Shown in pieces: positions 22,260 to 54,580 of a DNA stretch of 54,861 bases. This DNA comes from Girardia tigrina (Eukaryota). The stretch covers positions 1 to 54,861 of the forward strand of contig MQRK01245678.1 of NCBI GenBank assembly GCA_001938485.1. The letters are read 5' to 3'. How positions within the stretch are numbered: position 1 is the first letter of the stretch; each line of letters starts with the position of its first letter. The position numbers and the translations under genes are program-made. The notes under the pieces were generated by a model, which saw only the letters and a program-made list of their open reading frames with translations, was not told where the DNA came from and did no database searches.

Positions 22260-22415
22260 GGGCCTCCTATCTCTTTCAATGGTATTGAGCCTAAGGCTCT
22301 TTAGAGAGTCCGCCAAAACTAAAGTCCTTAAGGGCCCTCCGCTAGGCCTCCTACGAGATCAGTGACTTTCTGCCTCTGAGCAGTCGGCTTTCCAGTGATG
22401 AATGACCAACCATGG
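22260..22415 (-). repeat. GC-rich structured 155-bp element, copy A
   Basis: Near-identical to 23414-23567, with internal inverted repeats. Confidence 0.8.
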
Positions 22416-22419
22416 CCAC

Positions 22420-22838
22420 CGACATGTTCAAACTGTCACCCGGGAGAATCTTCTTTTGACCAAGCAACAGCCATGCGTCACATCTCCCCACACCAAACAC
22501 TCGGTGCAACTCACTTTTGATTTCCTTGGCATTTCTCTGTTGATCCGGCGATAAGCCCTTCCACGTGTCGTATGCCAGCCCGTCAAAAAGCATGACCAAG
22601 TATGAAAAGTCTTTTTCTATTAGCCAGTCTAACTCGATGGTAAACTTTAATCTGTCGATCCAACGTTCGACGTCCTCTCCACCATCAAATTTCTTCAAAT
22701 TACTGAGTGCTTTCATAACCGCGATAGCTTGTAAAATAAGATGATTTTTTCGATTTACAAAAAACTATATTATTCAAACAAATTAGAATTAATCCAATTA
22801 ATTACAAATTAAATTTGAAAAAATCTCAATTTATTACA
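22420..22838 (-). mobile_element. gypsy 5' fragment: 109-bp LTR (22838-22730), atypical PBS, gag N-terminus
   Basis: TGTAATAA...TTTTACA LTR. Gag KFDGGEDVERWI..L...L.G.A is homologous to the gag at 51065. Confidence 0.75.
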
Positions 22839-23413: not shown

Positions 23414-23567
23414 GGGCCTCCCATCTCTGTAATGGTATTGAGCCTAAGGCTCTTTAGAGGTACACCCAAACTAAAGTCCTTAAGGGCCCCCCGATAGGCC
23501 TCCTACGGGGTCAGTGGCCTTCCGCCTCTGAGCAGTCGGCTTGCCAGTAACGAACGACCAACCATGG
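23414..23567 (-). repeat. GC-rich structured 155-bp element, copy B
   Basis: Second copy of 22260-22415. Lies downstream of the zinc-finger ORF across an N gap. Confidence 0.8.
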
Positions 23568-29600: not shown

Positions 29601-32600
29601 TGATAAATTTTTGGTTATGTTTTTTAATAAACAATTATTCGAACAAATTTTTCATTATTTTTAGATTTTATTTTTAAAGTTCAAATTTTGTAATTTTAGT
29701 AATAATTTTTATTTACATAGTAATTTTATTTAAAAAATGATTTTATGTAAAGAAAGAACATTTATTTAATTTAAAACTTAGTTAAAACTATTTACTTTAT
29801 TTAAATTTTAATATGAAAATTTGAAACGATTTGATATTCTTAAAGTTTTTAAATATCTTATGCTGTAATTTAAAATGCAAATTATACTCGAATAATTATT
29901 CATCGTGAACATCCAAAATATCAATTTTCCATCTGGGTGGGAGAAACACATTTCCAAATACTAAACTCAACATACAAGATTCAACATAGCAAATTTTAAA
30001 ATATTCCTCACAAATGATTTTAGGAATTAACGTGAAATAAAATTATGTGGAAAAAAATATTATTTTAAACAGAATTATGAGTTTTAAAATTAAAATGGTT
30101 TCAAAAAATTTGAATGATAGTTATCAGAATAAGTTCGATATAAAATATCTTTAAATAACTGGAACTCAACAATGACTAAACCAATTTAAATTGCTTAAAA
30201 AATCAAATTGAGATTAAACAAATTCGAATTGGAACTAAATAAATACTAATGACAGGGGTTCCCAGAAATGGTGACAGTAAAAAAACAGGACATTATTAAC
30301 GAGAAACAGACTGACTAGAAATTTTCGCTACATTTTTATATATACTTTAAATGATGCTTGATATACTGATGATATACTGACGAATGCTTGTGAAGGATTT
30401 CATAACGCATTGAATTCGTTATTTCATGGCTACAATACCATTTGGAATTTAGTAGGAGGCCTTGAAAGAAATATGACATACCTACTTTTAACTTAGACGA
30501 ATTCACAAACGAAAATGAAGAACAAAATATTAAAATCTTACTGAACAAGTAGAAATTATAATAACGAACATAAAAAATTGAGGTTTATACGCCGCATGGC
30601 TAATTTGAAATAAATATTTATTCATTTTTGTTTTATCTTTGTTTCATATATTTTTATTGTTTGAAAAATCAACTTGACAAAATTAAAGATTTTATTTGCT
30701 TTCTTAATATACATATGTATATGTATGTTATACCGAATTTGTGTAATTGCCGAATTCACGAACTTGGCAATTTTTTTAAAAGTTTTTTAATTCAAATATA
30801 AAATTGATATCATTTAATATGAATAAAATATCAATTTAATATGAAAATATCGATTCAATATGAAAAAATATCGATTTAATATGAAAAAATATCAATTTAA
30901 TATGAAAAATATCGATTTAATATGAAAAATATTTATTTAATGAAAAATTATCGATTTAATGTGAAAAAATATCAAATTAATTTGAAAAATATCGATTTAA
31001 TACAAAAAATTATCAATTTAATATGAAAAATACTTTCAAAATACAAACGTTTGCAATTCAGGTTACCACCAAGGAAGAATTTGTAATAACTGTGAATAAA
31101 AATTTTTTATTTGGAGTCCATTTTGCATAAAAAATTAAGATTTTTTTCATATTTATTAAATTGATAATTTTTCATATTAAATACATATTTATTCATAATA
31201 AATTCTGAAATTTTCTATTAAATTGATTTTTTTAATGTAAAATTGATTTTTTTTCATATTAAATCGATATTTTTTCATATTAAATCGATATTTTTTCATA
31301 TTAAATCGATATTTTTTCATATTAAATCGATATTTTTTCATATTAAAGCGATATTTTTTCATATTAAATCGATATTTTTTCATATTAAATCGATATTTTT
31401 TCATATTAAAGCGATATTTTTTCAAAATAAATTGATATTTTTCATATTATTAGGTGTATAACTTAGTTTTTTGGATTTTCTAAGAGATGGTGTAACCTTT
31501 GTAATAAGCAGTATTTTACAGTCGTACGTACAGATTTTTAAAGTGCTGAAATCGAGGCATTAAAATTAAGAAGGTCATTGACCTTAAATGCGTCATAAAC
31601 ATATTTTTAATCACGTTTTAGCATGACAACTTTCATACCAATAAAACAACATTTGCGGGAAGCACTACTGTGTTGCTTTAATCAAAAAAAAGCTGCAGAC
31701 AGTTTTCAGCTTCTTGAAGAAACTTATGGTCAACATGCACCAACTCAACAGACTTGCGAGAACTGGTATAAACGTTTCAAAAGTGGAGATTTCGACGTAA
31801 GTGACAAAGAGCGTTCCGGTCAACCAAAAAGATTCGAAGATGAAGATTTGGAATCATTACTGAAGGAAGATTCTACTCAACGTCTACATGCTATGAAAAT
31901 GATTCAAAGAGAAGGAAAATGGATACCACATGAATTGAATCAAGCCAACATTGAAAGTCGATTACTGATATTCAATTCATTGCTTACAAGATAACGAAGA
32001 TGGTCGTTTTTGCATAATATTGTGACTGNNNNNNNNNNNNNNNNNNNNNNNNNNNNNNNNNNNNNNNNNNNNNNNNNNNNNNNNNNNNNNNNNNNNNNNN
32101 NNNNNNNNNNNNNNNNNNNNNNNNNNNNNNNNNNNNNNNNNNNNNNNNNNNNNNNNNNNNNNNNNNNNNNNNNNNNNNNNNNNNNNNNNNNNNNNNNNNN
32201 NNNNNNNNNNNNNNNNNNNNNNNNNNNNNNNNNNNNNNNNNNNNNNNNNNNNNNNNNNNNNNNNNNNNNNNNNNNNNNNCACAGTGATTTTGCTCCATGA
32301 CAATGCTCGGCCACATGTCGCAAAACAAGTAAAAAACACGTTGGAAGCACTTAAATGGGGAATTCTACCGCATGCTGCCTATTCACCAGATTGTGCCCCA
32401 TCAGATTATCATCTGTTCCGATCAATGCAAAGCGCTCTTCGGGACCAGCACTTCAGAAACCAGGAACATATAAAAATGGCTGGAACAATAGATCGCATCA
32501 AAAGACCAAAACTTTTTTTTCGATGGAATTCATAATTTGCCTGACAGATGGTCGAAAGTCATAATTAACGATGGAAAATATTTTGATTAGAATAAAACTC

Positions 32601-35600
32601 ATTATGTCGTATAAATAAACTTGTCTGTTCTGCAAAAAAATCCAAAAAACTAAGTTATACACCTAATAAATACATAATCTTTCATTTTAAATTGAGAAAT
32701 TTTCATTTAAAATGAAAATTTTTCATATAGCTAGTGATTTCGGCAAGAATTAACTAGTTCATAAATTCGGAATGTTGCCGCTTTCACGAATTAGGCAAAA
32801 TATTTTGCAAGTCGGCCATTACACAAATTCGGCATAACATGTATATTGTTAGTCTCCAGGTTTCACTTCAGGATTCATAATATCAACAAGCAGAATTTAT
32901 TTAATATTTACAATCTTTTTAGAATACTTAAACAAATAATAATCACAACTTTGTTCTTGTATTTTAAGTTTTTTTAATAATCAACTAGACAAAAATAAAA
33001 ATCAATTGTTAGTTAGTTATTAATTAACGTATTTGTAATATATACCAATTATTTCTGATCAAAATGAAAACTTCCTTTGCTATTATATAGTTGCAATGTA
33101 TTTGTATATATTATGTGAAACGATTTTTTAACGTGACAAAAAAAATTTATATTTTATTATTTTAAAAATATATTTTAGGATAATATATTTCGACGGTTTA
33201 ACCGACATCGTCAGATCACTGATTATGTTCTTTTTTATTGCTTTTATATAAGAAATGAATGATTATGCAATCACTTACGTAAGTCTAATCGAAAACTCTT
33301 AACAAATTAGTTGAGAGTGCTGTTTGAACGTTGATTTTAGGATCACATGATCTTATCAACAATGCTTCACATGACACTCTCTCCCAATAATTTTTAAACT
33401 GCTTGCACAAAATCTTAAAATCATTTATGCTCATATTACATTTACACGTTTTTTATGCTCAGCAATATCACTCTTTCCCCCTTTTTGACTGTGTTCTTGG
33501 ACTCGTTTGCAGAGATGGCGGGTAGTCTCTCCGGTGTATGTGGCATTGCACCCATTACATGTGTATTGATAAACAATGTCCGAACACAATCCTAAAGGAG
33601 TATGTGATTTATTGCAAAACATATTCTCAACTTTAAATGAATGAGAAATAATTTTTAAATTTAAAATGTTATCTGTTGATTTCAAGATCGAATTCTTGAG
33701 GTGTTTAAAGCCCTCGGAGTAAGGTGAGCTTAGAGTATACCCAGGTGTAAAGCAGTTTTCAATGTTTCAACTATTAATTTTTTCTAATAAGTTGAGTTCA
33801 TCTTTAGACAAAACCGTCTGACTTAAATTTAAAACAGTATTTTCGACATTAAATTTAAATACACCAAACAATTTCCTCAAGTTAAATAATTTTTTATTTT
33901 GTGCAGCAATTTTACTTTTATTGGTAAATTTTTTACTTTTATTAAAAATTATTGGGAGAGAGTGTCATGTGAAGCATTGTTGATAAGATCATGTGATCCA
34001 GCACTTTCAACTAATTTGTTATGAGTTTTCGATTAGACTTACGTAAGTGATTACATAATCATTCATTTCTTATATAAAAGCAATAAAAAAGAACATAATC
34101 AGTGATCTGATAATGACGGTGAAACCGTCGAAATATATTATCCTAAAATATATTTTTATATGGCGTTTATTTGTTTATCATAAAAAATTGTCATCTTTTT
34201 TCAAGTTTTTTTATTTTGTTATTACTTATTTTGTTTATTTCTATGTGTTTTTCATTCTTTTCAAAATCTTGTTTTGGTTCCATTATTGATTCATCAAATT
34301 CTCTACTTGAATTGATGTTGCTTTGCTTTTCCGCGATTACGTCTGTTAATTTTTGAATTGTTTTGTCTACGATTATGATGTTCGTTTGAATTGATCTATT
34401 TTTATTTATCAATGTGTTGGTATACATTTCTTGGAGTGTTGGTTTTAATTGATTGTGTTCCGTGTCTTTGGTTTGTGAATAATTATCTCTGAATTTTCTA
34501 ATTAATAATGATTAGGTTTGTATTTCTTTAACGAAAGTTTTGGTTTGTGAGTGTTTCTTTGTTGCTTGTGTTTCTTTCTCTGTTAGTTTGAAGAAATTCT
34601 TCTGATAATTTATGTCATGGATATGGTTTTGTGGGTTTGTGTTGCTTGCTTTATTTCGAAAAATTCTGTTTTGGTTTTGTTACAGTCAATATTTTTATGA
34701 AAGATTTTTCCTTTTTGTATCGGTGTTGTTATCTCTTCCACATAATCTTTTTATGAACTTTTTGATTTTGGAGTTGTAAAACGTTCGAATCCTTGGTTTT
34801 TGTGCACATGCTTTTTGTTTGAATGAGCAATGGTACTGGCATTTAAGTGCATTGCCTTTAAACTTAGTGTGGTACCAGCAGAACATATTTTCTTATATTC
34901 TTCTATTGATGTTTCTAGAATCTCTTTATGGTTTTCTGTTTCTTCTTTTATGTATATTGAATTTTTTTGAATTATTGTGTTTCAAAAATAAATAAATGTT
35001 CTGTTTTATAACTGTTCTGTTCTGTTTTATCATAGAACACCAGAAATATATATTACGATCAGAACAATAATTATTTTCCCCTAAAATCTTTATTTCGTTC
35101 CAATAGTAATTATTTTATTTTCGTCAATAATGATTGTATTCCAAAATAAACATTTTATTCGTGAAATAACCGTGTAATAGAAAATAAGCTGTAAATATTT
35201 TACGATTTTATCAAACAATTAACATAATTTCGTCTGTCAGAAATTAATAATACAAAAGATGGAAGATTGAAACTCTTAACTTGTTCCAATTTCTCCTCTT
35301 CAATGTCGATCTGAAGTTTATATTCGTTACGGCTTCCTGAAACCATTACTTTGCTTTTTTCTCTGTTTATTTCCATTCAAAATTTATTTGACACTGTGTA
35401 ATCCGTTCGTAATTTTCGCTTTAAATTGAGAAAATTTTCGCTTAAAATTGAGAAGTTTCACTTTAAATTGAGAAAAGTTTCACTTTAAATTGAGAAAATT
35501 TTCGCTTAAAATTGAGAAAATTTTCGCTTAAAATTGAGAAAATTTTCACTTCAAATTGAGAAAATTTTCACTTAAAATTGAGAAATTTTCGCTTAAAATT

Positions 35601-37154
35601 GAGAATTTTCGCTTTAAATTGAGATTTTTTTCGCTTTAAATTGAGATTTTTTTCGCTTTAAATTGAGAATTTTTTCGCTTTAAATTGAGAATTTTTTCAC
35701 TTTAAATTGAGAATATTTTCACTTAAAATTGAGAAAATTTTCACTTAAAATTGAGAATTTTTCACTTTAAATTGAGAAAAGTTTCACTTTAAATTGAGAA
35801 AAGTTTCACTTAAAATTGAGAATTTTTTTCGCTTAAAATTGAGAATTTTTTCACTTAAAATTGAGAAAATTTTCACTTAAAATTGAGAAAATTTTCACTT
35901 AAAATTGAGAATTTTTCGCTTAAAATTGAGAATTTTTCGCTTAAAATTGAGAATTTTTCACTTAAAATTGAGAGAATTTTCACTTTATATTGAGAAAATT
36001 TTCGCTTTAAATTGAGAAAAGTTTCACTTTAAATTGAGAAAAGTTTCACTTTAAATTGAGAAAAGTTTCACTTTAAATTGAGAAAATTTTCGCTTAAAAT
36101 TGAGAAAATTTTCACTTAAAATTGAGAAAATTTTCACTTAAAATTGAGAAAATTTTCACTTAAAATTGAGAAATTTTCGCTTAAAATTGAGAATTTTTCG
36201 CTTAAAATTGAGAGAATTTTCACTTAAAATTGAGAAATTTTTCAATTAAAATTGAGAGAATTTTCACTTTATATTGAGAAAATTTTCGCTTTAAATTGAG
36301 AAAATTTTCGCTTTAAATTGAGAAAATTTTCGCTTTAAATTGAGAATTTTTTCGCTTTAAATTGAGAATTTTTTCGCTTTAAATTGAGAATTTTTCACTT
36401 TAAATTGAGAATTTTTTCGCTTTAAATTGAGAATTTTTTCGCTTTAAATTGAGAATTTTTCACTTTAAATTGAGAAAATTTTCACTTTAAATTGAGAAAA
36501 TTTTCACTTTAATTTGAAAATTTTCAAATTAAATGGAGAATTTTTCCTTTTACAGTTTCTCAGTTTTGCGACCCGTGAATACTGCAAATGTTCAAAATGT
36601 AAATTGATTTGAGCAACACAGAAAAATATATAGAAAGAAAACGAAAATAATCGATACCCAGGAAATAATTGAGAAGAAGCTGAAGGCGATGGCGCCTCGA
36701 GGATCGTTGAGAGCAACATTTGGATGTTCTGTGTTCAATTTGTTCGTCATATAACAGAACCCGACGAACCACAAGAACGCCCAAAAGGCCGAGAACGCCA
36801 TATCAAGATAAAGAACGTATTTGCGCTGCTCGACACTCGACAATTGCGGAAACACCGCGTCTAGAGCTAGAAACGCAACACATGCCAAACAAGCAATAAC
36901 GCCGATTGTGGTAGCATACCCGCACGCGCTCGAATTACTAAATAAGCATTCGTTTCTTATATAACCGCCACTACCGATACAACTACACACAACCACCGCA
37001 AACACCTGAACACAAATCCGATAATTTTTTTCTTTTTGTTCAATTTGATTTCGCTTACAAATGAAATCACACGTAAAATGACCGAGGGATTTTTGATAAA
37101 TTCTCTAAAGTCGAAAGAATTTCCGGAAAGACCGCTACCGAACACTTGACTCAT
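26614..37154 (-). CDS. SYNGR: synaptogyrin (MARVEL domain), 222 aa; exons 37154-37059, 37005-36658, 26838-26614
   Basis: Phase-0 GT-AG introns of 53 bp and 9819 bp. Motifs FD..FIK.P.VILR, FAVVV..CI...GY, CLF....ACGY...[41 protein letters not shown], then a Tyr/Gln-rich tail ending in TGA. Confidence 0.92.
27074..28319 (-). mobile_element. full-length mariner (mellifera-like subfamily), defective
   Basis: TA-flanked 31-bp TIRs [63 protein letters not shown]. The second catalytic D is replaced (HGNARPH), and there are frameshifts. Confidence 0.95.
28575..29020 (+). mobile_element. solo LTR, 3'-truncated, of the 9120-14124 gypsy family
   Basis: Colinear with the reverse complement of 13660-14124. 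Confidence 0.85.
29040..29250 (+). repeat. dispersed non-coding repeat (third copy)
   Basis: Similar to 16600-16800. Confidence 0.65.
29494..30012 (-). mobile_element. complete solo LTR (TGTGAGG...GTTCTTAATA)
   Basis: Same termini as the 5' LTR at 14124-13634. Flanked by 149-bp direct repeats. Confidence 0.8.
30350..30610 (+). mobile_element. MULE/Mutator-like transposase C-terminal remnant
   Basis: [15 protein letters not shown]....TIWNL resembles the TNN..E.WH...N...HP.IW motif. Confidence 0.55.
30726..32839. mobile_element. non-autonomous foldback-like DNA element with TGTTA...TAACA ends, 4-bp TSD (TGTA) and inverted 21-bp minisatellite arrays
   Basis: About 30-bp TIR TGTTAT(A/G)CCGAATTTGTGTAAT(T/G)GCCGA. 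Arrays at 30800-31030 and 31240-31447 run in opposite orientation. Confidence 0.7.
31450..32666 (+). mobile_element. mariner (mauritiana/Mos1-like), defective, nested in the foldback element
   Basis: TA-flanked [80 protein letters not shown]. Confidence 0.95.
33178..33217 (-). ncRNA. minimal hammerhead ribozyme in pLTR
   Basis: GAT CTGACGA TGTCGGT-TAA-ACCGTC GAAA TATAT T ATC, with one stem II mismatch. Confidence 0.7.
34104..34142 (+). ncRNA. minimal hammerhead ribozyme in pLTR, core-mutated
   Basis: GAT CTGATAA TGACGGT-GAA-ACCGTC GAAA TATAT T ATC. The CUGANGA core has a G>A change. Confidence 0.6.
34170..35045 (-). mobile_element. highly degraded CsRn1-like gag remnant
   Basis: CHCC motif [19 protein letters not shown] and a TGGTG start near 35042. 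Confidence 0.5.
35268..35400 (-). mobile_element. RTE LINE internal fragment
   Basis: [12 protein letters not shown]...EKLEQVKSF, similar to 3215-3270. Confidence 0.7.
35412..36515. repeat. about 22-bp minisatellite (AAATTGAGAAAATTTTC(A/G)CTT(T/A))n, roughly 50 copies
   Basis: Direct tandem array about 140 bp from the synaptogyrin exon 2 donor. Confidence 0.97.
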
Positions 37155-37757: not shown

Positions 37758-40260
37758 GGTGCTTTTTTTAAGTAGGAACTCAGTTCCCATACCTTTTTTG
37801 CCAGATTCGTTTATATTGATATAAAATAATCGGCGTTTTACTTACTGTCAGTCCTTTTTACAATGAGGACTCACGGGAACGACATAAATTACGGTTTATA
37901 AATATACAACAAACTATATAAATGTACCAAGTAGCAAAGGCTGTTATTCTCTAATATTTAATATGATATCCATGGCATAGCCTTTTCAGGGGGCGTGGCT
38001 ATATTGATTAAATTATTTGGTAATTAATTATTCGATGTCATTTTAGATTTTACAGTCTTAAAATTAATGATAATTAAACAAACAAAAAAGCCTTGAAATG
38101 AAGAAAATCTCAAGTTTTTTTCCCAGCTGCTGCTCCGGTAAGCAAACAATTGAAACAAGAACTTGCGGAAGATAATCATTTTCAAACAACAGTCTCAGAA
38201 CAAACGTGTGTAGGCGATGTAGACATAGACTCGGACAATGATCAGCCAAGTTGTTGGAACAAAGATTAGACTTCTGCCGAAGATATGAGTGGCTGTGTGT
38301 TAGAAGAAAAAAGCTCGGCTGTGCTGTCTGCCGAAAGGTTGGAACACTTGGCATAGAAACAAAAATTGACATGAAAATATAGAAAGAATGGACTGATGGC
38401 GAAGTATCTTATTACAGAGATGAAAAAAGAAACAGCAGTATTCACTTCGAAAAAAAAATTTGCTTCAAAAGGAATCTGCTGGACATCAAACTGCTGTAAA
38501 GATAGTAACAGAAGCAGAAAAGGAAGAGCTTGAAAACGTAGTTTTAAAGTCATTGACACGTGAGAAAACATTAACGGCTAAAATTTTAAACACTGCATAC
38601 AAAGTTACGAAAAGAAATCAGTCATTTAATAACTTTGAAATGGAAATTGATTTACAAGAAATGAACGGGATAGACATTGGTCACATTCTACATTCGACAA
38701 ATGCATGCAGTAATATTGTAAATCATATAAGCACTGAAATGAGACAGACGCTGGTCAAAGAAGTGGTTAATTCCAAAAGTAAAATGTCACTGATGATCGA
38801 TGAGTCTACGACATTGAGTGGAAAATTAACCCTTATAGTGTACTGCAAAGTTGTATAGAAGGCACTGAAATGAAAGAACCAGTAAATTTATTTCTGGACT
38901 TAGTCAAACTTCAAAGTGTCACAGTCAACGGAATCCTTACTGCATTACTAGACTGTCTTAAATATTACGGGATGGGTGAAGAATACTTAAAGAACTATTT
39001 AGTTTCTGTAACATGGGATGGTGCATCTGTCATGTCGGGATGCAGAAGTGGAGTAAAGAAGCTACTTACTAATAAATTTCCATCGGTTATATTCTGGCAC
39101 TGTGCTAATCACAGACTTAAACTATCAGTAGCAGATATCGTAAAGGACGTTTCAGGAGTCAAGAGATTTAAATCATTCCTTGATAAGCTATACGTAATAT
39201 ACCATGCTTCTCCAAGAAATAGTAGAGAACTGCATTCATGTGCTAAATTACTTGAAGTAGAGTTATTAAAAATTGGACGGGTTTTAAGTACGCGATGGGT
39301 TTTGTCAAGTTTCCGTGCAGTGTCTGCAGTGTGGAATAATTATGCAGCTCTGGTAAATCATTTTGAAGAAGCAATGACTGATCCCACAATAAGTAACAAT
39401 GAGAAATGTATATATGAAGGGTTGAAGAAGAAAATAGCATCAACTGAATTTGTGATGGATCTGGGTCTGATGTGTGATGCTCTTCAAGAGTTATCTGAAT
39501 TGAGCTTGGATCTACAGCAGCGAAACATGAATCTTTACAAAGCGAATCAAAAAATAAAATCACTCGTACAGGTGTTCGTGGAACGAAGGGAAAATCCAGG
39601 CCCATATTACCGGAGTGCAACAGCAGCTGCTGAGCATCTAATATTTAATAAAATTGTACTACACAACAGAAACTGCAAAAATGATCCTTCTATTGATGCA
39701 AATGTCTTTTATGAGAAACTTAGCGAATCAATTGCAAAAAGATTACTGTCTAATGAGGATGTTGAACTAGCTCAATGGACTAGCATACTAGGTCCAGAGC
39801 CATTGGACAGATAACATGAACAACTAGTTGACATTTGGAGAAGCGGAAATTGAGAAATTGTGTAGCATGCTGCAATTTAACGCAAGAGAAATCATTCATG
39901 GATTCCGTGATTATCTTACGGAAAGAACATATTCTGAAAGAAGTTTTCCTCTGATACATGCTATTAATACAATTTCCATTTCTTCCAGCGAATGTGAAAG
40001 GGGATTCTCACAAATGAATTTGATAATCACTCCAACGAGAGCTTCGCTTATGATAAAAACAGTTTCCGCACTTTTATTCATCAGAATGGTCGGTCCTCCA
40101 CTAACATATTTTGATCCTACAAAGCACGTAGACTCTTGGTTGCTTCGAGGCAAAAATTCAGCTCTAAACTCACAAAGCAAGAAAAGAAATAGAGATGATT
40201 TGTCTAATGAAAACATGAGAAAACTCTGGAAGTTGTTTTAAAGCCTAATACGGTACAGTA
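37758..40260 (+). mobile_element. hAT transposon, KIAA1586/ZNF862-type transposase (about 38098-40241), broken ORF
   Basis: WL...KLGC.VC, LMIDEST, DGASVM, WHCANHRL, TRW, SSSECERGFSQMN. Subterminal GGAACTCAGTTCC palindrome. Confidence 0.9.
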
Positions 40261-46018: not shown

Positions 46019-46960
46019 TTATGATTGATGCATAAGACTATATTTCCACAGCTCTTTCCATTGAGATGGATATACTACATTTTTTCCGACTAAATATATA
46101 TAATTGATTAAATTTTCATTTATTTTTTTGTCTTGTAAGACATAATGTCCATAGTTTTCAGCAAAATCTTTCAGTTTTACTCCCGACTTTCGTGCAACCA
46201 AACCTGTAATGAAGACATCATCAATAAATAAATATTTCTGGTAATATGAGCATATAAGAAGTGGTGTTACTGATGACTGAGAAAACAGATATGCGAATCC
46301 TTTAGTAAAGGGTGGGTATCCATCTTCTTCATATTCGTTTTTCGAAACAGTCCATTTAAAGCCTTTGACACGGATCGGTTTTTCATTGTATGAAATTTTA
46401 CCTAAAACAAATTTTTCCTTTGGATTTAAATATTCTGTAGAATAATGCAAAAGAGGAAAAATATTGATGAAAGTATCATCATCTGTTTTAGAAATAAATT
46501 TGGCTTGAGGACAAAATTTCTGAATCCAATGTAAAGCAACAATGTGTTTCAACGTTAAGTTTCGATAAGTGTCTAGAAAATCCCCTTGAATTATGTCTCG
46601 ATAATGCTTACTTTCTTCTTCTATTTTCCTTTGGATTTCTTGGGACTTCGGTACTCCCAACACAAATAATACGTTCACAATTTTTGAATCAATATATTTC
46701 AAAGATCCCCAAGTTTCTCTTATCAGCATCCGTCGATCGAAATTAGTAGAAGACGTTTGAACGTAAAGCAACATGAATATATCGTTAAAGCAAAATTCTG
46801 GTTCATTTATTTTATAAGTGAAAGGAGTATGATTGTAATACGCATAACTTCCGTTTTGACAGCTTAAGGATGTTTCCGTTTCATTACTCGGAAGATTGAT
46901 AAATTCGATTCCTTTAACAATGGTTACTGAAAGGATTAATATCGCAATTTTGAGTCCCAT
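46019..46960 (-). CDS. beta-1,3-galactosyltransferase-like protein (GT31), 313 aa, single exon
   Basis: N-terminal hydrophobic anchor. RRMLIRETWG, FVLG, E...YRDIIQGDFLDTYRNLTLK, KTDDD, YPPF..G.AY..S, IDDVFITG. ORF is uninterrupted. Confidence 0.9.
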   Translation of the reverse strand: MGLKIAILILSVTIVKGIEFINLPSNETETSLSCQNGSYAYYNHTPFTYKINEPEFCFNDIFMLLYVQTSSTNFDRRMLIRETWGSLKYIDSKIVNVLFVLGVPKSQEIQRKIEEESKHYRDIIQGDFLDTYRNLTLKHIVALHWIQKFCPQAKFISKTDDDTFINIFPLLHYSTEYLNPKEKFVLGKISYNEKPIRVKGFKWTVSKNEYEEDGYPPFTKGFAYLFSQSSVTPLLICSYYQKYLFIDDVFITGLVARKSGVKLKDFAENYGHYVLQDKKINENLINYIYLVGKNVVYPSQWKELWKYSLMHQS

Positions 46961-48794
46961 GATAATTTTGGATAATCTTCTATGATTTAAATGACATAAA
47001 AAAGAAACAATGAATATTAATTGATTGATTTATTTATTTAATGTGCAAATTATTTAATCAAATATTAACACACATTATTAATTATTATTGTTCAAATACA
47101 CAGAAATTATTTCATTCATTCTTCAATATGCACTATCATTTCTTTTCTTTGTAATTCTATTTCTATTACAATTGTACTACAGAAGAAACACAACAATTCA
47201 TTTTAGTCATGAAAAATTTTTAATATAATGCGTAAATGTATTGCAATAAAAAGAACCTTTTTTAAAATATCGATTTAGATGGTGAATAATCCATTTATCG
47301 TAATAAATCCCTTGTATGATAATATAATAATAAAAACAATAACAGAAAGATAAAAAGAAGGTATGATAGTTAATTACAATAAAAGATGTTAATGACAACA
47401 ATGAGGAGTTAGTTTAAATTTGCACTTCGCCAAAATGATATACTATTTTTTTAAATTTAAAAGTTTGAAAAAATTAAATAAATCCACAAAGCTTTAAGAT
47501 TAAAAATGATCTCGAAAGGAAAATCAACAAAAATTAAATACTTATATAAAAATTAAAAAATAAAAATTGATATATTTTAATAAAAGTTATGAAATAAGAA
47601 TTTTAAAATAAATAATGAATGGATTAAACTTTATAATATTTTAAGAAATATTTTTTTAAATAAAAGGCTTATGGTAAAAAAATTTTAATTTAATAGTTTT
47701 ATGATAAAGTTTTATAAAAATTTTTTAGTTCTAATTTAAAAAAATAATTTTATAATTATAAGTTAAATTTGACAAATTAAATTGAAAGAAAATTTAATAG
47801 ATGGATTTTGGCGAAATAATTGAATTAACAAGAAATTCGTTTATATATGTGTATTATTGTCATGAATAATGTTTTGCAATAAATATGACTTCTGAAATTT
47901 CAGATAATGAAATTGACATAAACGCTACTTATAACAACGAATCAGTTACTTTACTTTAATTCAATGAATTTCAGATCAATTAAAGTTTGTCAGACAATAG
48001 AATATTTTCATCTTTGGTATAGTCGATTAATAAGAATGAGATAAAATAGTCTGTCAATACTTGGGAATAATTCTTCAAGTATAACTTTTCGTATTTGGTT
48101 AGGAAATCTTTTCTGTAACCAACAATGTCTTGATTGTTTAGAGATGAATAATATTTTGGAAAAATAGACGATATAATTCAGTAATTATAGACAAATAGAT
48201 ACGCGATCAGAATGAGTTAGAAAAACTGTTCATATGATTACCAAAATCGCAGTAGTAATTAACTATAAAAATACAGGTATAAATATGATATTAAATGAAT
48301 TAGCAAATTCAATTTATGAATTATAATTCCAAAACGAAATTCACATCGTTATGGAATTATGTTGAAATTTCAAGTAAAATTATATTATAATACATGTTTG
48401 GGATTCAAAAAATATAATATATATCTCCATTATTATCGATATTTATATCAAGAGGCTCATTCATTATCGCTCTCTCTCGCCTCAATTAAGAATGACAATC
48501 TTTGATATTTTTATTCGTTTTCGTTTCTTTTGTAAACAATAAATAAAAAAATTATAGATAATATGTAAAAAAATGTTGAAAGTTGAAAAGAAAATATCTG
48601 GAATCTTTTAGACCCCTTAAATATGTTTACGTCATTTTTTATATGAAATTTGTTTATCTGAAGAAAAGCTTGAATAATACTTTGAAAACATTTGAAATTT
48701 GAAAAATAAATATATCGAGGAATTGACTTATTATTGCTGAACAAGAAATAAAATCATTGTTAATAATCAGTAATAAAAAAAATTAATAATCATA

Positions 48795-50870
48795 ATAAAA
48801 AATAAGTGCCGGTATGCAGAAACTGGCCATACAGTGATTTTGCTCCTCCGCTGCCCAACGCCAACACCCTGACGTCAACTCCCACGCCCCCTCCCCGATT
48901 TTTTAATATATTTAAAAAAAAGAGTGGTTTCTTTTCCTTTTTGCTCACACAAAATTGTATACAACCCCCCACACATTAACGAACCCTGAGGGAAACCAAA
49001 AACCATTCTCCGTTTAAATCTTATTGACTACACAATAAAGATATTCACAAGCGTGTGTAATGGTAACTATAGTAACTACAGATCTCACTAAGTGTCCAGT
49101 CAACAATAAACTGTCTAGAGCTGACATATTTTGTAAATGCAATCGACACCAACATCGGCATCCTTTCCACTAGCCGATGTGACATGCAGCAAGTATAGTC
49201 GGCACTGCGATGACCACTGCTCAGCCAGCTGTGCAGGTATGGAATAGGATCCCACAGTGCAAGAGAAGGACCCACCAATCGGATCATCATCAGTTGCGAT
49301 ACGCGGCTTATTTGTATGGCAGATCGAGACGACGTCAAAATCAGATTCATGGCACTGAATCCACGCTCACATTCGGCTGTTGAAACGGGGATTGAATCCA
49401 TGATGAGAAGAAGTGGCTTGAGGTCCTGGGGTACTCGCTTTCCACCATTCTTAATGTACTCCCTCATGCCTTTCAGGCAGTTTGAAGAGCTGAGGTTGAA
49501 GTGACTGCAGAGGTAGCGAACCGCGTGATCACCATGACAAATGTTGACCGAATCTGGCCAGTAGGTGGGATGCAAGGCTTTGAAATGTTCTAGTAGCTCA
49601 GAAGAGGAAGGAAATCCTTTGTTGCTGGTTAGCAGGTGATCTTCCAATTTCTCCGCCAAATATAGGAAGAATTTGTTGGCGTAGATTTCGACATCACTTT
49701 TGCGTCCCTGATATACTCCCATAAAGCAGGAAGGTTTTTCGAGAACTTTTTGCATATGGGGGCCCTTACCGTCTTGAAAGGCTTTGAGCACAACGACTTC
49801 ACGTGCTATTAGCCTATTGGCCTCAAGTACGTTGATNNNNNNNNNNNNNNNNNNNNNNNNNNNNNNNNNNNNNNNNNNNNNNNNNNNNNNNNNNNNNNNN
49901 NNNNNNNNNNNNNNNNGGTTTGCTAGTCCTTGGTAAGTCACCTGCTCAGACTTCGACCTTGTAGGATCGGATGCAGCCTGAGAGAAGTGCTCGAAGAGTG
50001 CTGGATAGTTTTGCCAGACTGCAGCAACTGTTCTAGCACTGGAGGCTACCCAGCTCGTGTTTAACACACGTCCAATGGAGAGGAGTTGAGTTCCCAAAGA
50101 TTCACTCACGTCGTGAAGCTGGCGTTGGTTCTTAGGACTCTGATGATACAACGAATATAGTTTATCCATAAAGGCACGGAAGTTGTTCACTCCTCCAACT
50201 TCTTCCACAGCATCATTGACTGCCAGCTCGAGCCGATGAGCAGTACAGTGCCACACGAAGACTTGCGGAAAGTCTCTTAAAATCAGAGCAGCAACTCCTG
50301 CGCGGCGACCCAGCATTACAGATGCGCCGTCGCAGGCGAAGGATACCCAGTTTTCAAAAAGATATTCCTGTGTAAATCCATGGCCTTCATGCAGCGCAAC
50401 AATTCATCATAAATGTCAATTGCAGTAGTCCCTTGCAGCTCTACCAGATCCAAGAAGATAGTTTCCACGATGTCTTCAATGACGACTCGAGGGTACACGA
50501 CGAGAGCAGATTTGTTACTCAAGAACGTTGATTCGTCAACAAGTACAGAAATCTTTGAGCCCGAGATGACTATCTTCTTGATGACTTTCTCGCGCATTTC
50601 CTTCGATATGTGCTCAACTATATTGTCACATGAATGGTCGCTGTGTAGTATTCGACCGAGATCAATTCCGTTCATTTTCTGCAGCTGAACTTTGTGTTCC
50701 ATATCAGCAAACGGCCGATTGAGCTTGGCCTGCTTATACACTGTACGGAACACCTTCGCAGTGGTACTTTCTTATGCTTTCAATTGTGCTACCGTCAACT
50801 TCTCAATCGTTTTCTTCTTGCTGGCTTCCAAGATTTTCACCGCTTCTGAGTGTGCAGCACTTTTGTAGTG
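48795..50870 (-). mobile_element. second KIAA1586/ZNF862-type hAT transposon, interrupted by a gypsy element
   Basis: VLVDEST, ACDGASVMLG, WHCTAHRLEL, STAECERGFSAMN. GTGCCGGTA subterminal motif near 48806 and a possible far-end motif TACCGGTACTC near 53515. Confidence 0.88.
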
Positions 50871-53460
50871 TAATAATTATAAAATAGTTTGTTGTGTAAA
50901 TTATATAACAGGGATATAGAGAATGCACATTGTGATTCGGAAAATGATTTTTGTTTGAATAGTTGAATTTACGCGCATTATTTGAAGCTGTGATTGCGGT
51001 GAATATATATCTTTATTGAGTTTATTTATTACTTATTATTTATCACAAGCTATCACGGTAGTCTATGATGATCAAATCGGGGGATATTATCAGTCGTTAT
51101 GACGGTACCAGCGACTTCTCGGAGTGGATTTCCAAATTCGAATTGGTGAACCGTCTCCAGAAGATAGAGAATTTGGAATCGATGATGCTACTGTTCCTAT
51201 CTGGTGGAGCTTTCATCGTGTATGACGGCCTGGTGCATGGAGTGAAAAACCAGTATTTGGAGATCAAACCCGCATTAGAAAGGGCGTTCTGTATCGACCG
51301 ATTTGCGGCATTCGGTGAATTATGTCGCAGGACACTGACAGATAAATAGTCCATAGATGAGTTCGTGGCCGATGTAAAAAGAATGGTGCGTTTGATAGAT
51401 TGTAATGCTAGTAATGAGTGGATAAAGAGCTCCGTTACATTGGGACTTCCGGATCCGGTTAAGCAGTCAATCAAGTCGACCTGCTCGGTGAAATAGCGGC
51501 AGTTATCTGATATTATCCCGATGGCACGAGTGATGAATTAATCGGATCCATGTATGGTAGAACGATATCAGATAAGGGGACTTCATAGTGATTTTGGAAA
51601 CCGGACGAATAAGGGCGACGGAGGAATGGCTGACTGAACAACTTATAACGATCGTCGAGCAGAAAGGAGGTTTGTCAAGTGTAACAACACGGGACACATA
51701 GCCCAATTTTGCAGAGCCGCGCCTCGGAGGTGCTTTATCTGCGACGATGGGAGCCATGTGGCGAATCAGTGTCCACATAAATCTGAAAAGCAACCAAAAA
51801 ACGAGTAATGAAAAGGCAGGTATGCACAGCTGTCTTTCCATGTCAATATGAGCAGTTGCCCGGGTTTGATGTTGGACTGAATGATCGAATGGTGTGGATG
51901 TGTGTGGATTCTTGCAGTAGTAGGTCTATTGTGGTTCAGAAACATGTAAAGTTACTTAAACTCCGGAGAGCTAACGTGTATATTGTAATGTTGAACGGGG
52001 TGAGTCTGCAAGGTGCATTAATTTGTGATGTTAGTGTAAATGTCTGAGGAAATGAGATAGTGTTGAATTGTGAGGTTGTGGACGAGTGACCGGGTGTGAG
52101 CTGCTTATTAGTCTTGATGGTATCAGGAAGTTGCATGGGGCTAACATTACAGCAAATGGAGATGTAACTTTCGGAATTGAGATGGAGTTGTCGAGAATGG
52201 CGGATGTATGTAACGTGAGCGTCGGTCGGTGTGGCGATGATATGAAGAGCACTGTGAGGGGTAACAACATTGACCGTGAAGTGAAACTTAGTGTGGCGAA
52301 ACCGGAACCGCAGATTTTAGATAAGGATTTTGATGCGTGGCTTGATGGTGAAAACTGGATTGTCAGTTATCGATTGATTGAACCAGGTGGATGAATTGTG
52401 TTGAAGAACAGTTTATCATCGTATTCAGTTAGACAGGAGATTCAAGGCGAGTTCAATACTGAGATCGAGAAATGGATTCAGGAGAGTTGGTAACAAGAGT
52501 GCAATGCGCACGAAGGAGAGATCATTCCGTTGATGGCCGTTCATCAACATAACGAAGGCAAGGTCAGGCCAGTGTTTGATTTCAGGGAACTGAATGAATT
52601 TGTGTCCAGTCATTCGACAGAAAGTTATATTTATGCCGAAAAGCTCAGAAGATGGCGCAGAAATGGATCAAACCTCTGTATTATAGATCTGAAGACAGCA
52701 TACATGCAATTGCATGTAACACGAGAGCCATGGAAGTTCCAGGTGGTTCGGTTTAGAGGAAAGTCATGTATGCTGACCCGTCTCAGATTTGGATTAAACG
52801 TGGAGCCAAAAATAATGTCGGTGGTAATCAAGTTCGTTTTGTCGAGTAACCATGTTGTTAGAGATACCACAGATTCATATGTGGAGGATATAATTGTGGA
52901 CTTGAGTAAGGTTAGCAGTCAGGAGATTTTGAAGACACTCAAGAATTTTGGACTTCAGGCTAAACCAGCGGAACCGTTGTGTGAGAGACGACTTTTAGGA
53001 TTGAGGGTGGTTGAAGAGAATGGAGTGATGAAATGGAAACGGGACAACGTCCTTCAAGAAGTGAGTAGTGAGATGACAAAGAGACAGGTGTTTTCGTGGT
53101 GTGGTCAAACAACTGGGCATTTTCCTGTTGCTGGATGGTTATGACTCACGTGTAGTCTGATGAAGCGAATAGTGAGCGAGCTAAAGTGGGATGATAAGAT
53201 AGATGAAACAAGGGCTGGAATGTTGATGAATATTCAGAAGCGTTTGAATAAATGTGATCCAGTGGGCAGAGTACGGAGTATTCCGAAGTCAAAAATGGAT
53301 CGTGTATGGTGTGATACGAGTAGCCTCGCGATCGGTGAATGTTTGTAGGTAAATCACATCATTTTAGAAGATAATTGCTCGTTACAGAAGAAAAAGGATG
53401 TCTGCCACATTAATCTAGCAGAATTAGAAGCGGTGTTGAAGGAAGTCAATATGGTATTCT
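50869..53460 (+). mobile_element. gypsy LTR retrotransposon: LTR 50869-51047, atypical PBS, gag with two knuckles, PR, RT, RH; 3'-truncated
   Basis: YDGTSDFSEW, CFICDDGSHVANQC, slippery A AAA AAC near 51797, VDSCSSRS, KVRPVFDFRELN, IDLKTAYMQL, RFGLN, SYVEDIIV, GHFPVAGWL, WCDTSS, HINLAELEAV. Confidence 0.9.
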
Positions 53461-54324: not shown

Positions 54325-54580
54325 AAATTTCTTTGAGAGAACCTGGATTAAAAAATTACATATTTAAATATAAAATCTTAGTATATTGTGTTAGTTTAAT
54401 ACATAGTGTGGATGGACCTGATGAAGGGATTGTTATCTCGAAACGCGTCGTCTTCCTTTTATCCCTTGTATATAGTTTATATTTTACCGATACAATCGAA
54501 AATTTTGCGATAGATTATGAAAGAACAAAGAAATTCAAAACGGAAGTATTTTGTTGGTGTGTGATTGTTTTACACTGACC
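54325..54580 (+). mobile_element. Penelope-like 3' end/pLTR
   Basis: LREPGL resembles the endonuclease-terminal P.GLN motif and is followed by a hammerhead. Confidence 0.55.
54415..54452 (+). ncRNA. minimal type I hammerhead ribozyme, intact core
   Basis: GAC CTGATGA A GGGA-TTGTTA-TCTC GAAA CGCGT C GTC, with palindromic stem III ACGCGT and a GUC cleavage triplet at 54447-54449. Confidence 0.8.

Follow-up and report, generated by a model that had tools for sequence, protein, structure and literature searches.

A conserved site complementary to the 5′ ends of host tRNAs follows the 5′ LTR of DUF7047-bearing retrotransposons in Girardia tigrina

According to reviews, the primer of an LTR retrotransposon is one of three kinds: a whole tRNA, a half tRNA cut in the anticodon and a self-primer (available text of PMC6317226). 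Half-tRNA priming is known from Drosophila copia, yeast Ty5, plant Osser, Bryco and Bianca and fungal Helenus, where the primer is the 5′ piece of a cut tRNA and the binding site adjoins the LTR without a TGG start (accessible parts of PMC6317226, PMC10886601 and PMC10275265). In these sources the site pairs with the anticodon stem-loop and the mode is described only for Ty1/copia. Tf1/sushi of S. pombe primes itself: the first 11-12 nt of its RNA pair with the site, and its RNase H cuts the RNA-RNA duplex between bases 11 and 12 to give the primer (available text of PMC7175516). Canonical priming, in retroviruses, most Ty3/gypsy and Ty1/copia elements, uses the 3′ end of a host tRNA and a site directly after the 5′ LTR.

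The elements reported here carry DUF7047 in Pol. As in the half-tRNA systems, their site adjoins the LTR and has no TGG start; unlike in those systems, it pairs with tRNA nucleotides 1-12, which would leave no part of the primer single-stranded, and integrase follows RT-RNase H. The likeness to Tf1 lies in the pairing of the first 11-12 nt of an RNA with the site and in a cut at the duplex end that would make the primer. Tf1, however, uses its own transcript in cis, whereas in the DUF7047 clade the LTR has no complement and a host tRNA supplies the pairing strand in trans. A host tRNA and a site directly after the 5′ LTR are shared with canonical priming; the opposite tRNA end, the absence of TGG and the need for a cut or a branch set the clade apart from it. 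Two of the tRNAs concerned, tRNA-Lys(UUU) and tRNA-Phe(GAA), also serve HIV/ETn and IAP (available text of PMC7472051).

The window is the whole of a 54,861-nucleotide contig of G. tigrina (MQRK01245678.1; C245678 of the 1.43 Gb assembly GCA_001938485.1, here G000, to which all site counts refer). It contains a decayed LTR retrotransposon on the forward strand. The 117-bp 5′ LTR (TGTGA...CACA) occupies 50931-51047 (+) and adjoins the putative primer-binding site AGCTATCACGGT at 51048-51059 (+), a form decayed by two transitions; the gag ATG follows at 51065. The earlier note had read the same LTR end, 12-mer and ATG. The CA at 51046-51047 is the true LTR end, since family alignments begin at 50929-50931 and a copy with both LTRs (L351) has identical ends. 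A broken gag-pol at 51065-53459 (+), matched by tblastn to residues 6-760 of protein P0026, comprises Gag, CCHC knuckles, protease, RT, DUF7047 and most of RNase H. It is interrupted by stops and frameshifts, and integrase, PPT and 3′ LTR are absent.

A copy of a second family lies on the reverse strand, where the earlier note had placed a divergent relative with CA and a 12-mer in the same position. Both are there. The 3′ part of its 5′ LTR (22730-22815, -; exact start not fixed; 87-90% to L004, L028, L267 and L293) ends in CA and is followed by AGCTATCGCGGT at 22729-22718 (-), which forms 11 of 12 Watson-Crick pairs with tRNA-Phe nucleotides 1-12; the final base is C in three of the seven copies of this cluster. 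The ATG stands one base further on, at the head of a truncated remnant of the gag start (22402-22716, -; tblastn E 8e-4 to P0026 residues 12-106).

Other features of the window are a repeat, one copy of which (22308-22415) truncates the second element while the other (23460-23567) precedes it, a 452-codon open frame just upstream of the 51048 element (49045-50403, -) and two open frames of 336 codons each (46019-47029, -, and 38804-39814, +). An integrase remnant of another element, with a weak match to P0026 (E 3e-6), lies at 10087-9815 (-). Inverted repeats of 160 bp, 676 bp apart and MITE-like, occur at 33163-34158, and AT-rich tandem arrays with a 21-22-bp unit at 1-700, 30800-31480 and 35326-36560. 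Motifs of the form CTGA(T/A)GA-short hairpin-GAAA are found at 54418-54449 (+) and at about 23115-23089 (-), and we take them to resemble the minimal hammerhead ribozymes of Penelope-like elements.

In 30 copies with the LTR end of the window the 12-mer ends in ...GCGGC (18 copies, reading AGCTATCGCGGC), ...GCGGT (8), ...ACGGC (3) or ...ACGGT (the window alone), and both free positions vary by transitions only. With 18 of the 30 reading AGCTATCGCGGC, the AGCTATCACGGT of the window is taken as a decayed form. The site proposed in the earlier note is real; two of its letters, A at position 8 and T at the last position, are decay. AGCTATCGCGGC pairs perfectly with nucleotides 1-12 of host tRNA-Phe(GAA); as all twelve pairs are Watson-Crick, the G:U pair that had been invoked for G1 is unnecessary. 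tRNA-Tyr was considered as the partner of the window copy and rejected, as it makes only 10 of 12 pairs and the family is of the Phe type. A genome scan gave 129 matches for CAAGCTATCRCGGT against two for the reversed control, and 995 sites for CAAGCTATCGCGGC, the Phe type after CA, against none for its control.

A host tRNA with the matching start, which the earlier note had asked for, is present: the tRNA-Phe(GAA) gene begins GCCGCGATAGCT, and GCCGCGATAGCTCAG begins four loci in the genome. On contig C181207 the two halves of tRNA-Phe(GAA) flank an insert of about 1.8 kb, and ARAGORN joins them into a cloverleaf whose acceptor stem is paired throughout. The assembly holds no uninterrupted tRNA-Phe gene, and Rfam gave no match on the split loci. 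The tRNA-Phe 5′ end and its flank are covered in all four public runs, with no differences among the matches listed, and the 5′ end has a very high word depth in one run, as expected of a collapsed multicopy gene.

Inserts occur in tRNA-Phe (L055:89-1947, G000:C181207) and in many tRNA-Tyr genes (L031-L052). They sit just past the D arm, either following GAGCG or within the anticodon arm; about 16 target bases recur at the far end of the L055 insert. Judged by sequence, the inserts are an element that targets tRNA genes. Among known elements, Dada families insert into tRNA-Tyr and tRNA-Phe genes (available text of PMC8869645). The 12-mer itself was rejected as a relic of a Dada-like insertion: it lies inside the element, antisense and without tRNA flank, and matches three tRNAs.

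The site follows the tRNA 5′ end by subfamily, as covariation would require. The Lys-type site AGCTATCCGGGC matches nucleotides 1-12 of host tRNA-Lys(UUU), four genes of which begin GCCCGGATAGCT, as a perfect complement, and its pattern occurs at 2316 genome sites against two for the control. Among the first 100 matches listed, 98 are exact, two have a final T and none matches tRNA-Lys(CUU), whose genes are in the genome and differ from tRNA-Lys(UUU) by one base in the site region. The Tyr-type site AGCTATCATCGG complements, without mismatch, nucleotides 1-12 of tRNA-Tyr genes beginning CCGATGATAGCT; its pattern has 72 sites (71 of them ...CATCGG) against four for the control. Three tRNA-Tyr genes beginning CCGATG, all interrupted, are among the 20 matches listed, and the intact tRNA-Tyr genes among the matches listed begin CCGGTG (11 pairs and one G:U) or CCGCTG.

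An unbiased set of 30 copies was chosen by Pol similarity alone. LTR end and gag start are retained in 18, and every one of these has CA and one of the three 12-mers with at most two mismatches: 14 are exact, and by type there are eight AGCTATCGCGGC, seven AGCTATCCGGGC and three AGCTATCATCGG. No site among the 18 begins with TGG. The remaining 12 were excluded because by eye they looked truncated or gapped or reached a contig end; L059, one of them, retains a few last bases of the Phe type. Of the sites sampled for the three types, 17 of 30, 6 of 12 and 8 of 12 had Gag similarity downstream, against none of the 118 chance matches in metagenomes; contig ends explain several of the misses.

The 142 sites selected by pattern fall into 51 flank clusters (38 Phe, 10 Lys and 3 Tyr), none mixed, and the 12-mer is kept across all of them. 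For all three types the best register on the cognate tRNA starts at nucleotide 1 with 12 of 12 pairs, the 5′-end register that the earlier note had read; the anticodon stem-loop register is best for none. The base after the 12-mer is variable (A19 T11 C7 G1 in the 38 Phe cluster representatives), so the pairing ends at the mature tRNA 5′ end; in the Lys clusters it is A in nine of ten, unpaired with the leader base A of the gene. On the LTR side the pairing stops because CA mismatches C13-A14 of the tRNA. ATAGCT at nucleotides 7-12 is common to the Phe, Lys(UUU) and Tyr tRNAs; given the shared AGCTAT, we roughly estimate the chance that six more bases fit one of about ten tRNA starts at 0.002 per class.

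In a tree built with FastTree from 46 RT-RNase H rows the Lys (seven rows) and Tyr (three rows) copies form separate clades, each with support 1.0, and the Phe copies occupy three branches. The deep nodes are weak, so at least two switches of primer type are claimed, in no order. A search with a degenerate pattern revealed no enrichment of additional site classes (453 matches, 851 in the control); the first 100 matches listed were either chance occurrences or mutated Phe and Lys sites. Folding around the site in four rows yielded no common structure (z -1.8 to +1.0). The site of L063 showed no variant among those listed in contigs of four runs, a result not used as evidence.

The element is an LTR retrotransposon, with paired TG..CA LTRs, a TSD, a PPT and Gag-PR-RT-RH-IN. 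Full copies measure 3.8-4.0 kb, have LTRs of about 105-140 bp with TG..CA ends and carry a G-rich PPT. LTR pairs were detected in 11 of 30 copies; TSDs of 5 bp are exact in six of ten copies and were recognized in three more on reading the sequence ends. Intact homologues encode a single Gag-Pol with the Pfam domain order PR-RT-DUF7047-RNase H-IN. The catalytic residues of RT, RNase H and integrase are conserved, the D-E-D-D of RNase H being invariant in all 30 homologues. DUF7047 (PF23088), which lies between RT palm and RNase H in each of these 30, marks the clade (P0026, alignment A1); from its position after the palm and its predicted helical structure it is probably the RT thumb of the lineage.

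The name 'gypsy clade' used in the earlier note fits the PR-RT-RH-IN order, but this order is common to gypsy, BEL, Troyka and retroviruses. The gypsy-type RT/RNase H profiles PF17917 and PF17919 match none of the 30 homologues at E 0.01, RVT_1 matches at best with 3e-7, and GP[FY] occurs in the last 200 residues of none, some rows being partial; the label is thus unproven. An AlphaFold model (mean pLDDT 79) resembles foamy, lenti, gamma and caulimovirus RTs to a similar degree, at 10-18% identity, and the Atlas neighbours are gypsy and BEL clusters (0.91-0.95, fewer than 170 shared features). The RT and RNase H motifs may resemble those of DIRS elements.

Troyka, as described in the available text of PMC12440569, resembles the clade in its short LTRs, single Gag-Pol, PR-RT-RH-IN order, lack of GPY/F, animal hosts and position outside typical gypsy. 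It has CG..CG ends, 3-bp TSDs and a CX2CX8-10HX4C knuckle, whereas the DUF7047 clade has TG..CA, 5-bp TSDs and CX2CX4HX4C. Membership in Troyka was rejected, as termini, TSD length and knuckle all disagree. The words 'primer', 'PBS' and 'tRNA' are absent from the available main text of that paper.

We regard it as very probable that the site binds the tRNA 5′ end, and likely that a 5′ tRNA piece serves as primer. The fuller model, in which a piece of 10-12 nt, probably released from the tRNA 5′ end by the RNase H of the element, then primes, is moderately favored by the sequence data and by analogy. It starts from what is observed: the site, its position, its register and the identity of the tRNA (Phe, Lys-UUU or Tyr by subfamily). 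In the particle, Gag would open the acceptor and D stems and the 5′ strand of the tRNA would anneal to the site; the predicted duplex has -19.1 to -23.5 kcal/mol (-15.9 for the window copy). RNase H, if it acts as in Tf1, would cut the tRNA where the duplex ends or close by, leaving a 3′-OH at nucleotide 12 (blunt) or at nucleotide 10 (with a 2-nt overhang, AG). RT would extend this primer to minus-strand strong-stop DNA, and plus-strand synthesis would later run off the primer at nucleotide 1, and this would account for the site ending at precisely that base.

RNase H is the first choice for the cutter because that of Tf1 cuts its duplex between bases 11 and 12. Its conservation does not single out a tRNA-cutting step, as every LTR element should have an intact RNase H. 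On the PPT side a G-run is followed by two variable bases (AG, CG, GT or AA) and then TG. These two bases follow the retroviral pattern of a 2-nt overhang and hint at a 10-nt primer: if the U5 end is processed alike, the primer would end at G10 with AG as the overhang, which places the primer end within nucleotides 10-12. Priming from a 5′ tRNA fragment of about 12 nt, as first proposed, gains support from register, covariation and the negative results for 3′-end and self-priming sites given below, with a primer 3′ end that may lie at nucleotide 10.

Instead of being cut by the element, free 5′ tRNA fragments might come from a host nuclease, be packaged, be trimmed to the 10-12 paired bases and prime. 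All of the sequence evidence would fit this origin equally well; 5′-tRFs are a recognized class (available text of PMC7472051), and the ATAGCT common to the three tRNAs at nucleotides 7-12 could reflect a nuclease preference. A longer fragment would, however, need trimming, as the CA of the LTR is unpaired with tRNA C13-A14. The common 5′ tRNA fragments measure at least 14 nt, and the 2′,3′-cyclic phosphate left behind by many host nucleases is unable to prime; we consider a host-nuclease origin unlikely. Priming from an uncut tRNA, in which RT would extend the 2′-OH of nucleotide 12 (or 10) into a branched RNA-DNA as in retron msDNA, has an established counterpart in retron RTs, requires no cut and agrees with site and register. 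To our knowledge there is no case of it in LTR elements. Since the Tf1 precedent also uses cleavage (available text of PMC7175516), branched priming appears improbable.

A site that merely anchors the tRNA, for packaging, dimerization or as an auxiliary arm like those of Ty1 and Ty3, would leave priming to the freed CCA end or to a protein. Ty1 and Ty3 do have auxiliary tRNA boxes, and annealing of nucleotides 1-7 would free the 3′ acceptor strand. In ten full-length copies, however, a cognate TGG+5 site occurs in none and no second cognate box rises above the non-cognate background of 7-10 nt, and the site occupies the sole place from which synthesis yields the LTR end; pure anchoring is accordingly hard to credit. 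The poorest candidates by far, and barely credible, are Tf1-type self-priming from the element's own transcript and an ordinary tRNA 3′-end site. The 12-nt length is close to the 11 of Tf1, and part of the site finds a loose complement near 50986 in the LTR at 50931-51047. Over 51 representatives, however, the 140 nt upstream offer a best pairing of 6.29 of 12 on average (maximum 8), against 6.38 in shuffled sequence. Pairing with four tested tRNA 3′ ends (Phe, Lys, Tyr) reaches at most 6 of 12. Both tests, proposed in the earlier note as able to overturn its reading, were negative, and pairing with the tRNA 5′ end stands.

The tRNA 5′-end site is real, is conserved and covaries with the host tRNA. 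It also appears to be new to the literature, as none of the openly available text consulted describes a site that pairs with tRNA nucleotides 1-12. The papers checked, in their available text, were PMC12440569, PMC6317226, PMC10886601, PMC13524379, PMC4202319, PMC7472051, PMC12801592, PMC10275265, PMC4558846, PMC7175516 and PMC8869645. A motif search of the searchable supplements of PMC6238403, PMC8556966, PMC4202319 and PMC10886601 found no such site, and a literature search by motif led, in the text available, to tRNA biology or unrelated subjects, with no retroelements and no mention of DUF7047. A PBS finder applies a 12-nt rule to tRNA 3′ ends (available text of PMC13524379). Finders based on 3′ ends miss 5′-end sites, which may be why more than 3,000 sites in one genome went unremarked.

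A primer of tRNA nucleotides 1-12 would join the half-tRNA and self-primer types and fall outside the three listed types (PMC6317226, available text). If it is used, very short 5′ tRNA pieces gain a direct role, and the elements would escape the 3′-tRF defence described for mammalian ERVs and become exposed to 5′-tRFs. Tentatively, and with somewhat more doubt than confidence, we suggest that the elements may represent a fourth class of LTR-retroelement priming, in which RT-RNase H cuts off the first 10-12 nt of a mature host tRNA as its own primer, and that the widespread animal lineage with DUF7047 in Pol may lie outside Ty3/gypsy as a superfamily of its own.

Homologues (124 proteins at E 1e-20 among 782 candidates) occur in Hydra, Macrosteles (leafhopper), Aplysia (sea hare), Amphibalanus (barnacle) and Watersipora (bryozoan). 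No relatives of the element were found in viral contigs, and the 118 matches of the window's 14-mer in metagenomes, none with gag downstream, were dismissed as chance. Four contigs with intact elements of the clade (L236-L239) are binned into two bacterial MAGs and are probably contaminating animal DNA. Two of them, taken to come from two further organisms, include a 5′ end, and both have a site: L238 carries the Lys-type AGCTATCCGGGC, preceded by AA, and L239 carries AGCTATTCCGGC after CA, the complement of which, GCCGGAATAGCT, would fit a tRNA start. A young Lys-type copy with 100% identical LTRs lies at L073:1300-4600. Its words are common, at 33-59%, to 20 runs from 11 studies under four organism labels, and these runs include aquatic, sediment and leaf-litter metagenomes.
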